IMG/VR virus record: IMGVR_UViG_2703718856_000008
Span: 1 to 40,953 of that record
DNA length: 40,953 nt
Origin: a virus
Lineage: Duplodnaviria > Heunggongvirae > Uroviricota > Caudoviricetes
Direction: 5' to 3' (one strand)
This document shows, piece after piece, positions 28,573 to 33,672 of the stretch. Made by a program: the position numbers and the translations under genes. The stretch's first letter is position 1, and each line of letters starts with the position of its first letter. The notes under the pieces were generated by a model. That model was given only the letters and a program-made list of their open reading frames with translations. It was not told where the DNA came from and did no database searches.

Positions 28573-28863
28573 TCATTGCCTTACCTCCATAAGCGCCCTA
28601 TTAATAAACGCCGTCATTGGATTTGCACATCCCCACCCCGTACCATCTGGATTTCTTTTAATTGGCTCCTTCTTCACTTTGCGTTTTGCATAAATAACCG
28701 TCTTCCACTTACGCTCAACAACACTCAAATACCCTTGTTTCACCATATGCCTTGCTGCTTGAGCGATTCTGTTATTTGGTATTCCGGTAATCAGAGCTAA
28801 TTCATGTGGGGAGAATTGTTCATGAGTTTTCAGATATTCCAGGATGATTTCTTTTCCAGTCAC
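28573..28863 (-). CDS. Hypothetical winged-helix-like DNA-binding protein
   Basis: 96 aa; HELALITGIPNNRIAQAARHMVKQGYL resembles an HTH; stop overlaps the start of the DnaC-like gene. Confidence 0.4.
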   Translation of the reverse strand: MTGKEIILEYLKTHEQFSPHELALITGIPNNRIAQAARHMVKQGYLSVVERKWKTVIYAKRKVKKEPIKRNPDGTGWGCANPMTAFINRALMEVRQ

Positions 28864-29705
28864 GATCTGCTCCTGTAACTATCCCATGTAAACGCAAGGG
28901 TGCATCCGCCGCCATCATTCATCCTGTCAATAACACGCTCACCAATGAATGCAGACAGTTCATCTTTGCTCTGGTTGCTAATCAGGATTGTTGGCTTCAT
29001 GCGCTCGTAGCGGGTGTTGATGATTTCGAACATGATCATCTTTTCCGCCTCGCTTCCAAACTGCACACCAACCTCATCGATAATTAGCAGGTCAGGTTTA
29101 GTGAACTGTCGGATCACTTCATCCTCTGTGCGGGTGGAGTTTTTCGACCATGTTGATTTATATTCTCTGGCAATTTTCAGCGCCGTTGTGAAAATAGCTG
29201 AGCTTTGATGTTCCGTAATTGCGTGCCGGGCGATAGCCAGTGCAAGATGATTCTTTCCAGTACCAGGCTTTCCACACATAACCAGCCCACCGCCTTTCTG
29301 TAACCTCTCAGGCCATTTGCTGGCGTATGCCTGACACACCCTGAGCACTCTCTTTGCATCGTCGTTGACTGGCTCGTAGTTCTGTAGTGTGCAACCCTTG
29401 AATCGTTCAGGAATATCAAGATTATTCAACAGAAACTCGACATTGCGCTTACGTGATTCCTCGTCGCTTTTAATCTTCTCCGCCTGTAGCCGAATAAGCT
29501 CATCTCTCATGCATTCCGGGCATTCGCTAGGTCTTGAGGCAAGCTTAATTGGCCCAGTCGAGTAACGGTTACGCTGCTCAAACTCACCATGTTTTTCACA
29601 GATGCCAGTGCCAATTTCTACAGCTGTATGCTCGATAGCAATTGGCGGAGAACTCAATTCTGCAAGTTTTTTCTCCAGTTGGGAGATCTTTTCATCCAGC
29701 GTCAT
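28860..29705 (-). CDS. DnaC-like replicative helicase loader (IstB-like AAA+ ATPase)
   Basis: ATG at 29705 with AGGAG RBS; Walker A GKPGTGKNHLA, Walker B LLIIDEVG; directly downstream of the O-like initiator (lambda P slot). Confidence 0.85.
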   Translation of the reverse strand: MTLDEKISQLEKKLAELSSPPIAIEHTAVEIGTGICEKHGEFEQRNRYSTGPIKLASRPSECPECMRDELIRLQAEKIKSDEESRKRNVEFLLNNLDIPERFKGCTLQNYEPVNDDAKRVLRVCQAYASKWPERLQKGGGLVMCGKPGTGKNHLALAIARHAITEHQSSAIFTTALKIAREYKSTWSKNSTRTEDEVIRQFTKPDLLIIDEVGVQFGSEAEKMIMFEIINTRYERMKPTILISNQSKDELSAFIGERVIDRMNDGGGCTLAFTWDSYRSRS

Positions 29706-29707
29706 GT

Positions 29708-30550
29708 TCACTCCTGCGCCCATGAAGGCATTTCAGTTTGCCCGTAATCTTTGGCGGCAAAGTTTTCCTGCATAGCTCGCTGCTGCGGCCTCGGTTGAGA
29801 TTTCCCCTTTGGAGTCTTGGGCTCAAAAATCCCCTGCCAACCACTGGCGATGCTCTGGTTTATAATTTCTTCAGGTGTATATCCCTTCTCCAGACTTCTG
29901 CTTAGAACGTTGATAGCCTGAGTAACACTTTGCTTAGACTTGATCGACTTACCTATCTCCTTGCGATATGTAACCCACGACAACCATGTTTCTGCTGATA
30001 ACCAATCAGGCAACTCTGTTTCTAGCGGGTCGAACTTCTGAGAAACTTTTTTGGGGGATATAGGGGGTTTATTAATATTTTCTTTTGTCTTTAAAGAATG
30101 TCTTTTGTGTGTCTCTAACTTCGAGACATTGAGTGTCTCTAATTTGGAGACATTTTTTGTCTCTAACTTCGAGACAAAGTTGCTAACTTGGAGACACTTG
30201 CTGAATTGCCACGCAGATACCTCAATGTTTACACCGATTTGATTTCCATCCATAAACAGGCAATTCATTGAAATCAGTTCTTTTTTAGCCTTGTTAACAT
30301 TCTGCCTTGACAGTCCTGTTAACTGAGCAATTTGCTCATCGGCTATTCGATCTGTTTTCTTATTGAATCCATATGTTTTCCGGACGTAGGCCAGCATAAC
30401 TTTCAACTGGCGAGCGGTTAAATCGGCACTTGCGATAGCTTCCAGCAGCTCGTTAGCGAATCTGGTGTAACCATCATCGATATCAGCCACTCTTCGCTCC
30501 TGTTCAACAGGTTCACTCTTCGGCAGGTAAAATACTTCAGCAAGGCTCAT
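29708..30550 (-). CDS. O: Replication initiator O (lambda O-like; iterons inside the gene)
   Basis: Start taken at the ATG at 30550 (GGAGG RBS); conserved N-terminal block ERRVADIDDGYTRFANELLEA as in lambda O; ORF extends to 30583 (TTG). Confidence 0.85.
   Translation of the reverse strand: MSLAEVFYLPKSEPVEQERRVADIDDGYTRFANELLEAIASADLTARQLKVMLAYVRKTYGFNKKTDRIADEQIAQLTGLSRQNVNKAKKELISMNCLFMDGNQIGVNIEVSAWQFSKCLQVSNFVSKLETKNVSKLETLNVSKLETHKRHSLKTKENINKPPISPKKVSQKFDPLETELPDWLSAETWLSWVTYRKEIGKSIKSKQSVTQAINVLSRSLEKGYTPEEIINQSIASGWQGIFEPKTPKGKSQPRPQQRAMQENFAAKDYGQTEMPSWAQE
30111..30195. repeat. Origin of replication: four iterons inside the O gene, followed in the direction of O transcription by an AT-rich segment (30061-30105)
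   Basis: Direct repeats of the dyad GTCTC-N7-GAGAC at 30111-30127, 30135-30151, 30159-30175 and a degenerate copy ending at 30195, spaced 24 bp apart; lambda-ori-like layout. Confidence 0.75.
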
Positions 30551-31181
30551 TTCCAACCTCCGCATCAAAGCATTGGGCTTCAAGAGACTTAACCATCACC
30601 ACACTGCCATCTGTATTAATAACTATCGATGAGTTATATTTGCTTATCAGTTGCTTCGCGTAATCAATTCCGGCGCGAATAAGGAAATTTTTCACCGCAG
30701 GAAGATGACCAACTACACTACCCAGACCTTGCTCTATAAGCTCCTCATTAAGATCAAGCTCATTTTCATGGCGAAAAGAAATGAATGAGTCGTAAATTGC
30801 GTATTCTGCCGTCTCGCCATTTCTTTCAGGGCCAACCAGCGCCCTTATTTCATTTAGAGATTCAGAAAGATCATTATCTTCAAGCTTGAAAAACTCTCGA
30901 TTATCACTAAGCCTCTCTTTTGCAAAGGCTTTATGAATGAGTTTTTCATCTGATGCGGGATTATTTGAATGAAAGGCTGCTATCACCTTAAATGGCTTAG
31001 GAACGCCAGTAGAGGCTGAAATTTCTTTAGCCCTAACTTCTGGTGAATGCTTAGTCATCCCAATCTTATAAATTCCTGGCATGCACTCATTCGAAAGCAC
31101 ATAAACAAAGCCATTTGATTTAAAATCATCTGGCACCTTCATGCTCTTCAGAACCTGGAATTTGTCATTTTCGTATGTCAT
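30537..31181 (-). CDS. T5orf172 (GIY-YIG-like) domain protein with uncharacterised C-terminal domain
   Basis: 214 aa; NGFVYVLSNECMPGIYKIGMTKHSPEVRAKEIS...GVPKPFKVIAAFHSNNPASDEKLIHKAFAKERL..REFF matches the T5orf172/MUG113 signature; inserted between cII and O. Confidence 0.6.
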   Translation of the reverse strand: MTYENDKFQVLKSMKVPDDFKSNGFVYVLSNECMPGIYKIGMTKHSPEVRAKEISASTGVPKPFKVIAAFHSNNPASDEKLIHKAFAKERLSDNREFFKLEDNDLSESLNEIRALVGPERNGETAEYAIYDSFISFRHENELDLNEELIEQGLGSVVGHLPAVKNFLIRAGIDYAKQLISKYNSSIVINTDGSVVMVKSLEAQCFDAEVGNEPC

Positions 31182-31189
31182 AATTACTC

Positions 31190-31258
31190 CTGTGGATTGA
31201 TCCAGTCTTTCTACATCAGGCCTCGAAGAATTCGCCGTTCTTCGGGGCTTTTTCTTTT
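31190..31258 (+). ncRNA. oop: OOP-like antisense RNA overlapping the 3' end of cII (candidate)
   Basis: Plus-strand hairpin CGAAGAA-TTCGCCG-TTCTTCG followed by GGGCTTTTTCTTTT at 31224-31258, antisense to the cII 3' end as for lambda oop; the 5' end is not defined. Confidence 0.45.
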
Positions 31259-31494
31259 GTCAGCATTCTGGCTACTTTCTTAGCCAGTTCCGCCAACTCC
31301 TCGTCTTCAACACCCCATTCAAGAACAGCCAGAAGCATTCCCATTTTGGGGATGAAGCTGTCTTTCCATCGCGAAATTTGCGATTCATTAATCCCTAACG
31401 CGTCGGCAACCTTTCGCTGACCACGTACAGCAATTCGATTCAGGATGTTGCTTGTAATTGCATTCGCTTTCTTGCGAGTACTTGTAAGTTGCAT
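31216..31494 (-). CDS. cII: Transcriptional activator CII
   Basis: 92 aa from the ATG at 31494; ESQISRWKDSFIPKMGMLLAVLEWGVEDEELAELAKKVARMLT closely resembles lambda CII. Confidence 0.8.
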   Translation of the reverse strand: MQLTSTRKKANAITSNILNRIAVRGQRKVADALGINESQISRWKDSFIPKMGMLLAVLEWGVEDEELAELAKKVARMLTKEKAPKNGEFFEA

Positions 31495-31573
31495 ATGTAA
31501 GTATTTCCTTAGATAACAATTGATTGAATGTATGCAAATAAATGCATACACCATAGGTGTGGTTTAATTTGAT

Positions 31574-31605
31574 GCCCTTTTTCAGGGCTGGGATGTGTAA
31601 GAGCG
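31574..31605 (-). promoter_or_regulatory. nutR (N-utilisation site: boxA CGCTCTTACACA plus boxB hairpin GCCCTGAAAAAGGGC)
   Basis: Minus-strand sequence CGCTCTTACACATCCCAGCCCTGAAAAAGGGCATCAAATTAAACC between cro and cII; matches the lambda nutR consensus as recalled. Confidence 0.8.
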
Positions 31606-31613
31606 GGAATGTC

Positions 31614-31829
31614 TTAAGCGGCTTTGTGTTCCGGCGGGAACACGTCATCAAGACTGACTTTTGCGCCTAACTTGTTTAGGCACTCAACAAGAGCACGGCA
31701 TGTTTTAAGGTCTGGGAAGCGACGACCAGATTCCCAATGTCCGATAGCTCCCTGTGTGCATCCAACTGCCTTAGCAAGTGTTGTTTGAGAGATATTCAGT
31801 GACTCTCGATATTTTCGTAGGTTGCTCAT
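31614..31829 (-). CDS. cro: Cro-like HTH repressor (XRE family)
   Basis: 71 aa from the ATG at 31829 (GGAGGG RBS): MSNLRKYRESLNISQTTLAKAVGCTQGAIGHWESGRRFPDLKTCRALVECLNKLGAKVSLDDVF...; divergent from cI. Confidence 0.75.
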   Translation of the reverse strand: MSNLRKYRESLNISQTTLAKAVGCTQGAIGHWESGRRFPDLKTCRALVECLNKLGAKVSLDDVFPPEHKAA

Positions 31830-31940
31830 ATGCCCTCCATAGTAACCATGAAACAATAATACGATATGTACTTTTAGAATGCAAACAAAAAATACATCTT
31901 GTGCATGGATGGTTTTAGTACAGAGCGTAATAATAAGGGT
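31830..31940. promoter_or_regulatory. OR region: divergent PR/PRM promoters and operators between cro and cI
   Basis: 111-bp AT-rich intergenic region between divergent cro and cI; TAATAAT -10-like element ends about 7 nt before the cI ATG, suggesting a leaderless PRM transcript as in lambda; operators not resolved. Confidence 0.5.
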
Positions 31941-32600
31941 ATGAAAATGAAATGGTATGAACTGGCTAGATCCAGAATGAAAGAGCTCGGCATAACTCAA
32001 GAGAAGTTAGCTGAAGAGCTTGGTATGACGCAGGGTGGAATTGGTCACTGGTTGCGCGGATCTCGTCATCCATCTCTTGACGAGATTGGTGTGGTGTTTA
32101 AATACCTTGGTATTGATAACGTCTCATTCAACCACGACGGTACATTTTCACCTGTTGGCGAATACTCATCTGCCCCCGTTAAAAAACAATATGAGTACCC
32201 TGTTTTTTCTCATGTTCAGGCCGGGATGTTCTCGCCTGAGCTTAGAACCTTTACCAAAGGTGATGCGGAGAGATGGGTCAGCACAACCAAAAAAGCCAGT
32301 GATTGTGCGTTCTGGCTTGAAGTTGAAGGTAATTCCATGACCGCACCAACAGGATCCAAGCCAAGCTTTCCTGACGGGATGTTAATTCTCGTTGACCCTG
32401 AGCAGGCTGTTGAGCCAGGTGATTTCTGCATAGCCAGACTTGGTGGTGACGAGTTTACCTTCAAGAAACTGATCAGGGATAGCGGTCAGGTGTTCCTACA
32501 ACCACTAAACCCGCAATATCCAATGATCCCATGCAATGATAGCTGTTCCGTTGTAGGGAAAGTTATCGCCAGCCAGTGGCCAGAAGAGACGTTTGGGTGA
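31941..32600 (+). CDS. cI: CI prophage repressor, chimeric: non-lambda XRE HTH N-terminal domain fused to a lambda-type C-terminal dimerisation/autocleavage domain
   Basis: C-terminal 130 aa ([73 protein letters not shown]...[10 protein letters not shown]) recalled as near-identical to lambda CI; N-terminal 90 aa differ; alternative start ATG at 31947. Confidence 0.9.
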
Positions 32601-32625
32601 TAGGAATGGATGTTAAGGATTAAGA

Positions 32626-33672
32626 ATGTCAGCGATTGATCAACCTGCGCAATATGTTATCAAGTCAGAAGACGACTTTGTATCTTTTGTAACAGAAATG
32701 CTCGGAAGGAAGGACATCGACTCAAGCGACTTCACATTCCCTAACGTAGTTTTCAGTGGATGGCCAAAGATCAATATTAATGTAAAAGGCGATCCAAATA
32801 GATATAATTCTTCATTGACTGCGTCAATGCTTTTTGGTATGGCAGAGCTTACGCATGAAATACAAAAAGCATTTACGGTAGTCAGTCACAGCACTCATAA
32901 TCGGCAGAAGCTAAAAGATGCAGAGAAAGGTTTGCTGGATATTGTCTACCGAATAAGCGAAGGCTCAAGCCAAGCGGATGGTGACTCAGATCCGATTGTA
33001 AACGGAGTGGTGACAGTGTTTACTCAAGCGATAGGCAAAATGACAGGAAGGCAAGCACTATGCGCCGTCGCCGCTATCGTCTTAGCTGCCAGCACGGTAG
33101 GCTATAAGTGGATCAATGAGTACTACGAAACACAGCGACATGACCAAGATTCTCAGGTGCAATTGGTGGAAAAAAGCACCAAAGCGGTAAACGAAGCACA
33201 AGACAATGTGCTCAAGTTGTTGATTAGCGGTCAAACAAACATTAGCAGAGAGGTTCTGGCTCACGGCGAGGATGGTAAAAGCAAGTTGCTTAAAAAGCTT
33301 GCTCAAGACTCGTCAGTTGAGAGGGTAACAATTGGTCAGAGAGTGGTAAATAGAGAACAGTTGAATACCTTAAACCAAAGACAATCAATTGATCGAAAAA
33401 AGGAAACTAGAAGAGATAACTTTTATGTCACGGGCGTTCGTCGCTCGGGAGAAACAAATCAGGACATAAATATTGACGTCATAAGGGTTTCAAATGGTGA
33501 ATCTTTCACCATAAAAACCTCAGCCGACATAACATCTACTGATGAGCTTCTTGAGTTTTTGAATGCTGTAGCCAAAGAGTCAACTGTTGAAATTTCATAC
33601 CTAGAGGTTGTAGAAAATGGGCACATTTCAACAGGGCAATTGATAAATATATTCCCCAGCGAACCAGAGTGA
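32626..33672 (+). CDS. Uncharacterised 348-aa protein with a central hydrophobic segment, co-transcribed with cI (rexAB position)
   Basis: RBS AAGGA 7 nt upstream; begins 25 nt after cI; followed by an intrinsic terminator; no domain recognised; hydrophobic stretch ALCAVAAIVLAASTVGY around residue 150. Confidence 0.6.
   Translation: MSAIDQPAQYVIKSEDDFVSFVTEMLGRKDIDSSDFTFPNVVFSGWPKININVKGDPNRYNSSLTASMLFGMAELTHEIQKAFTVVSHSTHNRQKLKDAEKGLLDIVYRISEGSSQADGDSDPIVNGVVTVFTQAIGKMTGRQALCAVAAIVLAASTVGYKWINEYYETQRHDQDSQVQLVEKSTKAVNEAQDNVLKLLISGQTNISREVLAHGEDGKSKLLKKLAQDSSVERVTIGQRVVNREQLNTLNQRQSIDRKKETRRDNFYVTGVRRSGETNQDINIDVIRVSNGESFTIKTSADITSTDELLEFLNAVAKESTVEISYLEVVENGHISTGQLINIFPSEPE

Follow-up and report, generated by a model that had tools for sequence, protein, structure and literature searches.

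The DNA analyzed here is the viral record IMGVR_UViG_2703718856_000008 (40,953 nucleotides, referred to below in its entirety as the window), which is a P22-like or lambdoid phage genome or prophage. Its early-right operon contains a gene of 214 codons for a protein of the T5orf172 family, a putative GIY-YIG-type nuclease, located between cII and the replication initiator gene O. The gene and the adjoining variant 5′ end of O are tentatively interpreted, with a probability of about 0.35, as an early-expressed and exchangeable endonuclease cassette at a mosaic module boundary that takes part in phage-versus-phage conflict or in homing-like spread. The notable features are an orphan acidic C-terminal domain and a near-absolute placement ahead of replication initiators; the nuclease itself is of a fairly ordinary phage type.

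The order of genes in the early-right operon, on the minus strand, is a cro-like gene, cII, the T5orf172-family open reading frame (ORF), O, and a DnaC/IstB-like loader gene. The principal features are as follows.

30537-31181, minus strand: T5orf172-family gene, ATG start, 214 codons plus TGA (ORF list, Pfam)
30506-31175, no strand: cassette of 670 bp replacing 42 bp of lambda-type O 5′ sequence (BLAST, alignment with N7 and WEM25)
31179-31191, minus strand: start ATG (31179-31181) and AGGAG Shine-Dalgarno sequence (31187-31191) of the gene (alignment of the window, N7, and Bas106)
30537-30561, minus strand: junction of the nuclease gene with O (sequence, alignment, Bas106 annotation)
30846-31112, minus strand: N-terminal nuclease domain, residues 24-112, GIY-YIG fold
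30540-30833, minus strand: C-terminal family-specific domain, residues 117-214, acidic, pI 4.45
31216-31494, minus strand: cII (Pfam Phage_CII, E 3.6e-42; PHROG "CII-like transcriptional activator")
29708-30550, minus strand: replication initiator O (Pfam Phage_rep_O, E 3.3e-36)
28860-29723, minus strand: DnaC/IstB-like helicase loader (Pfam IstB_IS21 and Bac_DnaA; PHROG "DnaC-like helicase loader")

The 214-residue ORF that the initial annotation had reported between cII and O is present in the ORF list at that location. Alleles of cII, O, and the loader gene that are ~99% identical to those of the window occur without the nuclease gene in phage N7 (MH717096) and in prophages such as that of E. 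coli WEM25. The homology with these empty alleles spans window positions 29000-30505 and 31176-31511. The cassette contains the nuclease gene and new codons 1-15 of O, which specify MSLAEVFYLPKSEPV as the N-terminus of O in the window versus MTNTAKILNFGRGNFA in the empty alleles; the homology within O picks up again at the shared EQE codons. This allele of O is present in 47 of 5,426 complete E. coli genomes. Sporadic presence between near-identical flanks at a single locus, the behavior looked for in a homing gene, was observed (19 of the 47 genomes with the cassette, 28 without it). All 28 of the genomes that lack the gene break at exactly 30505, with the other joint at 31176, and in none of the 5,426 genomes does the variant O 5′ end occur apart from the nuclease gene. 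Among 50,697 phage records, the gene was found in Bas106 (BASEL collection) only, where it is annotated as hypothetical.

The stretch of 63 nt that is replaced, which includes the Shine-Dalgarno sequence and 5′ end of O, is shared at 95% identity or more by 134 phage records, those of lambda, 434, SfI, and Stx phages among them, and it is therefore a conserved potential target. The GC content of the cassette is 40.4% (35% at third positions) versus 43.5-47.8% in the flanking genes. The gene had been described at first as an insertion. It is indeed additional relative to the lambda-type phages (N7, WEM25), but the event is not a simple insertion, since a 670-bp replacement exchanges codons 1-15 of O. 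Its absence from N7, WEM25, and the 28 E. coli prophages with the same O allele places the gene outside the core replication module.

The AGGAG and ATG-ACA sequences that start the nuclease gene are the same signals that start O in the empty alleles, as judged by alignment. The nuclease gene terminates with the TGA at 30537-30539 and O begins with the ATG at 30548-30550, so the two genes overlap by 14 nt. The Shine-Dalgarno sequence of O (GGAGG, 30557-30561) is encoded within the last codons of the nuclease gene. An identical overlap is annotated in the Bas106 record, and the overlap of about 14 nt given by the initial annotation is correct on all three counts (sequence, alignment, and Bas106 annotation). 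The interval between cII and the nuclease gene was scanned on the strand of the gene, and neither a promoter-like nor a terminator-like site was detected. On the early-right transcript from pR, no cistron intervenes between cII and the nuclease gene. Its proposed embedding in the early-right operon thus holds: the gene takes over the Shine-Dalgarno sequence and ATG of O, and no promoter or terminator of its own was found. In the metagenome protein P0032 (202 residues), the last ~65 residues of the nuclease are fused in frame to O, which probably reflects a frameshift or a misassembly where the two genes overlap.

The N-terminal domain was characterized by profile searches, fold, and residue conservation. 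Pfam matches were obtained to MUG113 (PF13455; E 4.3e-16, 59.7 bits versus a cutoff of 22.3, residues 38-111) and to T5orf172 (PF10544; E 2.3e-15, 57.4 bits versus a cutoff of 20, residues 24-112). These values are far above the curated cutoffs and support the T5orf172/MUG113 assignment first made from the sequence alone; the gathering score is likewise exceeded by every full-length relative checked. The domain has the GIY-YIG alpha/beta fold. The residues Y27, Y38, R50, H83, and E96 are invariant in an alignment of 38 sequences, with catalytic roles assigned to them by motif order and not by residue-level structural superposition. T5orf172 belongs to the GIY-YIG superfamily, in which an arginine and a glutamate are key residues (PMC8263062). 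Judged by profile, fold, and conserved residues, the protein is a member of the T5orf172/MUG113 family.

A word-indexed search provided 52 relatives. Approximately 28 clusters of 211-217 residues are 52-99% identical over the full length and originate from E. coli, Klebsiella aerogenes, Pectobacterium, Cronobacter, and Pantoea. Subfamily 2 (225-238 residues) is ~35% identical, and a third subfamily is represented by orf64 of Salmonella phage S107. The "hypothetical protein" XPK40751 of Bas106 is 99.5% identical, as is a RefSeq "GIY-YIG nuclease family protein". NCBIfam provides no family-level name for the window protein or for most of the neighboring initiators, and no match to the family profile appears among PDB sequences at E ≤ 1. 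The values of pN (0.09-0.31) versus pS (0.70-0.86) extend across both domains of the family; synonymous sites are saturated, and dN/dS thus supports purifying selection qualitatively only. On these sequence comparisons, purifying selection acts on the nuclease domain and the C-terminal domain alike. The ORF is real, beyond chance, as shown by its 52 homologues and by the strong depletion of nonsynonymous relative to synonymous change in the two domains.

The placement of the family was examined in other genomes. In all six of the contigs looked up, the T5orf172-family gene is preceded by cII or by a CII-like gene of the YdaT type and followed by an initiator gene, and the same CII-type/T5orf172/initiator arrangement is present in Salmonella phage S107. 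The IMG/VR sample consisted of 65 distinct proteins from the best 80 loci. For 60 of these proteins, a downstream ORF starts at ~-29 to +12 nt from the stop codon, and 58 of the 60 ORFs belong to clusters called replication initiators by Pfam or PHROGs (the other two are a DUF1376 protein and an unknown). Overall, the family gene is flanked directly by a CII-type activator gene and an initiator gene in about 59 of 60 distinct viral-contig loci. The initiators that follow the family are of the O, phrog_17247, DnaD, and DUF1376 types. Family proteins that are 56-62% identical precede O-, phrog_17247-, and DnaD-type initiators. The gene is not tied to the type of initiator, since proteins that are 77% identical precede initiators without detectable similarity to one another. 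The T5orf172 family is almost confined to the cII-initiator slot, whichever initiator family follows.

The slot itself has other occupants. After a CII-type gene with the same 3′ end and the same ATG, it elsewhere holds a 48-residue DUF2740 ORF or a 53-residue ORF, and the cII-initiator interval is a general accessory slot. In the prophage of E. coli 0H26, a 266-residue HNH endonuclease fills the slot (L018:3108-3908) ahead of a phrog_17247-type initiator, and the DnaC-like loader of this prophage is nearly identical to that of the window. No shared targeting domain was detected by hhalign between the window protein and the HNH occupant. In Burkholderia phage KL4, a gene of 132 residues with only the T5orf172 domain (L100:3007-3405) abuts "replication protein O"; GenBank labels it "putative helicase" and RefSeq calls it a GIY-YIG nuclease. 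The arrangement of T5orf172 before an initiator thus reaches beyond the Enterobacterales, as KL4 is a temperate phage of Burkholderia. An HNH domain is inserted at residues 137-176 of a phrog_17247-type initiator (the 340-residue ORF downstream in L054), and the 434-position profile of PHROG 8130 matches an initiator N-terminus at 11-102 and T5orf172 at 181-257. These two cases demonstrate that nuclease domains sit inside initiator-type proteins as well.

The C-terminal domain (approximately residues 117-214) is a genuine conserved domain, but it is an orphan that matches no family or fold. A128, G152, and G158 are invariant, and the pLDDT of the core is 90-95. The domain has no match in Pfam at E ≤ 10. 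Structural neighbors in BFVD cover only ~95 N-terminal residues of the protein and leave the C-terminal domain without a fold match. An exhaustive search of 1.84 billion representatives with the C-domain profile returned 16 matches, one of which is a laminin false positive; all of the full-length matches (200-245 residues) bear an N-terminal T5orf172 domain. The domain, left unrecognised by the initial annotation, matched nothing outside its own family in the Pfam, structure, and profile searches. Its pI is 4.2-5.9 across the family, and it is acidic in every member. Such acidity is unusual for a DNA-recognition domain. The C-terminal domain does not look like a DNA-binding domain; the acidity argues against this function without excluding it.

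The proteins of subfamily 2 end in a conserved G(I/V/A)YGP...x(E/D/P)xF-COOH peptide (P0031, P0035, P0039, P0040; L038-L094). Several of these tails read ..QSDDSDIPF or ..PDFDDAPF. Tails of the ..DDSDIPF and DFDDAPF kind resemble the C-terminal tip of SSB, DDDIPF. The tail was found before phrog_17247- and DnaD-type initiators and not before O-type initiators, and the window protein is without it.

If the favored interpretation is correct, an active DNA endonuclease would be made from pR early in lytic growth, alongside the replication proteins, and the cassette would be an exchangeable conflict or selfish unit at the boundary of the immunity and replication modules. The target would be a related lambdoid genome without the gene in the same cell, as in co-infection or with co-induced prophages. 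This genome would be cut at or near the conserved lambda-type cII/O junction that the cassette replaces, and recombinational repair from the carrier would copy the gene and the adjacent variant 5′ end of O into the cut genome. The outcome would be homing-like spread or the exclusion of the rival's marker. The choice of target may require a protein partner and not an intrinsic DNA-binding domain, a possibility raised by the acidity of the C-terminal domain.

Several observations favor this interpretation. T5orf172 is described as a homing-endonuclease family whose genes adjoin essential genes, including replicase genes, and recombination boundaries (PMC10448857). The carrier differs from the empty allele exactly over highly conserved sequence, a second class of nuclease (HNH) alternates at the slot, and nuclease domains also invade neighboring initiators (L054, PHROG 8130). 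Further support is provided by the precise presence or absence with identical joints, the low GC and third-position GC, the varied cII and loader partners, and the four-gamete result. Nearly identical copies of the gene, from E. coli and IMG/VR, remain associated with O, but their cII partners comprise at least four alleles and their loader partners at least three. The presence or absence of the gene gives all four combinations with 13 of 18 informative single-nucleotide polymorphisms (SNPs) in O, and these reach to 80 bp from the cassette joint. The complete linkage of the variant O codons 1-15 to the gene fits co-conversion. No co-conversion gradient of SNPs was detected in the flanks of carrier versus empty alleles, where the differences are few and scattered.

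Other results weigh against the cassette as a conflict or homing unit. Pairs of SNPs inside O also show four gametes. Ordinary phage recombination therefore suffices for the shuffling, and the four-gamete test cannot separate homing from it. The test for recent spread indicated that the cassette is no younger than the adjacent body of O. The C-terminal domain is acidic and matches no DNA-binding fold, and homing enzymes of the Seg type and the T5orf172 type of ICP1 have recognizable DNA-binding domains. Because the family occupies this position before unrelated initiators, the placement cannot be explained by a target inside the initiator gene. Carriers retain the conserved boundary sequence upstream of the slot, which leaves the immunity of the carrier to its own enzyme unexplained. 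Long-term purifying selection is as compatible with a useful resident gene as with an active selfish gene.

In the main alternative, which is possible but doubtful, the protein is an accessory nuclease linked to replication or recombination. Once the acidic C-terminal domain had docked on a protein partner, such as a component of the host replisome or of the SSB interactome or a replication protein of the phage, the GIY-YIG domain would either process forks, nicks, or branched intermediates or block the replication of the host at the onset of phage replication, in the manner of the optional structure-specific Rap and RusA of lambdoid phages or of the partner-dependent SLX1. The strict first-cistron position, tightly coupled to initiators of several types (~-29 to +12 nt) and repeated in the six contigs, S107, and KL4, is consistent with such a role, as are the acidity of the C-terminal domain, the SLX1-like neighbors, the purifying selection on both domains, and the GIYGP...xF-COOH tail conserved in subfamily 2, which in some members recalls the SSB tip. 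The gene is nonetheless dispensable, as demonstrated by the viable phage N7 and by 28 of the 47 prophages with the same O; no one type of initiator goes with it, and the window protein has no SSB-tip-like tail. Universal conservation at this position as a replication accessory factor had been regarded by the initial annotation as the finding that would count against its own proposal. The gene is not universal (19 of 47), but the family is almost always located at exactly this position. A replication-linked role stays live because the family nearly always precedes initiators of several unrelated families.

A more specific form of this alternative is rather unlikely. The family would be an unrecognised, optional component of lambdoid replication modules and not selfish, with the GIY-YIG nuclease recruited to DNA by a protein partner through its acidic C-terminal domain and, in one subfamily, with a contribution from the SSB-tip-like C-terminal peptide. 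The enzyme would act at forks or origins, for example by nicking toward the switch to rolling-circle replication, or by disabling the replication of the host or a rival. Such a function would explain the first-cistron place before at least four unrelated initiator families in phages from the Enterobacterales to Burkholderia.

An anti-defence or host-takeover nuclease, made early and destroying the nucleic acid of host defence systems or the host DNA, is improbable. A precedent exists in endonuclease II of T4, a GIY-YIG enzyme that destroys host DNA. Early expression from pR, the sporadic accessory distribution, the low GC content, as in morons, and a nuclease domain with catalytic-type residues intact are all compatible with this function, which was the one proposed by the initial annotation. 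Nothing was found that supports it: no known anti-defence protein resembles the window protein, the other models account for the placement just as well, and the PADLOC matches (PDC-S57 and PD-Lambda-1) are candidates for defence and not counter-defence and cover only the shared nuclease domain.

A prophage defence gene of the PDC-S57 or PD-Lambda-1 kind that protects the lysogen from other phages is very unlikely, since the PADLOC matches to PDC-S57 (E 6.4e-29) and PD-Lambda-1 (E 8.5e-12) align only residues 21-112 and leave the C-terminal domain unmatched, and the gene is downstream of cII in the pR operon with no promoter-like site upstream on its strand. The pR operon is held silent by the cI repressor in a lysogen. 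The PDC-S57 profiles are of similar length (212-245 residues), and the T5orf172 domain is at the N-terminus in PDC-S57 as it is in the window protein. PD-Lambda-1 shares the domain only; it is a protein of ~490 residues with a C-terminal T5orf172 domain, unlike the window protein. The aligned residues correspond to profile positions 3-93 of 212 or 355-449 of 496, and the protein was not assigned to either system. A 348-residue ORF (32626-33672, plus strand) lies on the same strand as cI (31899-32600, divergent from the early-right operon) and directly downstream of it. That place is the site of lysogen-expressed exclusion genes, such as rex in lambda. The 348-residue ORF has no match in a PADLOC search at E ≤ 0.01.

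The remaining features of the window touch the cassette boundary and the origin. The left 25 kb matches structural genes of the Lederbergvirus type.

31154-31258, plus strand: oop-type antisense unit (promoter and terminator scans; hexamer comparison)
30105-30199, no strand: origin iterons inside O (repeat search of the window)

The iterons, all of the GTCTC-N7-GAGAC type, comprise three direct copies of 24 nt, and a fourth copy, which is partial, joins them in a 17-nt family. The repeated VSKLET peptide of O is encoded by these iterons.

The oop-type unit contains a TG-extended -10 hexamer, CATAAT, at 31176-31184 and a terminator hairpin at 31218-31250 that is followed by a T-run. Its transcript likely starts near 31192. 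For the empty allele of N7, the scan detects TTGAGT-17-CATAAT, with the TG extension, as an oop-type promoter, and a terminator hairpin follows in the 3′ end of cII. In the window, the -35 position falls within codons 8-10 of the nuclease gene, where 31154-31160 reads CCTGGAA and the hexamer is TGGAAT; no promoter is called there, and the terminator is found. The -35 of the antisense promoter thus falls inside the first ORF after cII. A search of Rfam with positions 29500-33000 gave no match at E ≤ 0.1, and the unit is therefore called from the promoter and terminator scans only. The initial annotation had placed the oop terminator in the cII-O spacer of lambda; the oop-type terminator was located instead inside the 3′ end of cII (31218-31250, plus strand).

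The sequence CCAGG appears at nt +24 to +28 in all of the examined non-O occupants that share the ..AATT-ATG start context. These occupants are the T5orf172 gene, the 48-residue DUF2740 ORF, the 53-residue ORF, and the HNH endonuclease, and the ORFs are mutually unrelated. On the plus strand it reads CCTGG at window positions 31154-31158, and the same offset was found in L003, L007, L013, L014, L016, and L018. The offset is that of the -35 position of the oop-type promoter, where lambda-type O has ACTCAA (TTGAGT on the other strand). CCAGG seems to be a conserved DNA element, one that would constrain codons 8-10 of any gene occupying the slot. The subfamily-2 genes have GCAAG or GCAAC at this position. 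Upstream of the slot, a boundary sequence, ACTGGATCAAT(C/T)CACAGGAGTAATT, was found (window 31192-31208; L001, L003, L007, L009), and it is kept even where the upstream gene is of the YdaT type instead of cII. The CTG-N10-CAG within it resembles a LexA box. The pO promoter of lambda is LexA-regulated.

Lambdoid phages are the textbook example of mosaic genomes, and the cause of recombination at their module boundaries is still debated. The nuclease cassette sits exactly on the cII/replication boundary and alternates there with another nuclease class in other phages. It extends to temperate lambdoid phages the proposal, made so far mainly for lytic phages, that exchange boundaries are marked and perhaps driven by nuclease genes (PMC10448857). 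The strict placement before initiators and the acidic orphan C-terminal domain leave room for a new replication-linked role. If neither the boundary nor the replication interpretation holds, the protein would be one more uncharacterised phage nuclease. Both states of the site are represented among phages, with the gene in Bas106 of the BASEL collection and an empty site in close relatives such as N7.

The structure-specific GIY-YIG nucleases SLX1 and HIGLE are among the closest known systems to the window protein. The Seg proteins of T4-type phages are free-standing GIY-YIG homing endonucleases that are basic and have DNA-binding C-terminal domains; SegH and Hef replace mobC and mobE. Like these enzymes, the window protein is of ~200-220 residues, combines an N-terminal GIY-YIG-type domain with a second domain, and is encoded between conserved genes. 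As in the T4-type systems, nuclease classes alternate at one site, and flanks are co-converted in those systems. Unlike the basic Seg proteins, the window protein has a pI of 5.1, and its Pfam matches are to T5orf172/MUG113 versus GIY-YIG PF01541. As far as sequence can tell, the size, layout, and genomic behavior of the gene are similar to those of free-standing GIY-YIG homing genes.

The window protein is like Odn (Gp88 of ICP1) in its T5orf172 nuclease, in the theme of the replication origin and initiator, and in its proposed setting of mobile-element conflict (PMC8263062). The DNA-binding domain of Odn is N-terminal and its nuclease C-terminal, whereas the nuclease of the window protein is N-terminal. 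The targeting domain of Odn is homologous to the RepA_N of a satellite (PMC8263062), and the C-terminal domain of the window protein is similar to its own family only. The borrowing of an initiator domain in the manner of Odn was rejected: BLASTP and hhalign comparisons with O were negative, and the C-domain profile finds its own family only.

The putative T5orf172 homing endonucleases of ICP1, T5-like, and other phages (Barth, Dunham and Seed 2023, PMC10448857) share with the window gene the same Pfam domain, a free-standing form, and a location beside an essential replication gene. They also share a position at exchange boundaries and a sporadic distribution among close relatives. Those proteins mostly carry zinc-finger (CapR, DUF723, DUF4397) or RepA_N DNA-binding domains, unlike the acidic, family-specific second domain of the window protein, which is without a fold match. 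The window gene differs further in that its host is a temperate lambdoid phage and its position is fixed across the whole family.

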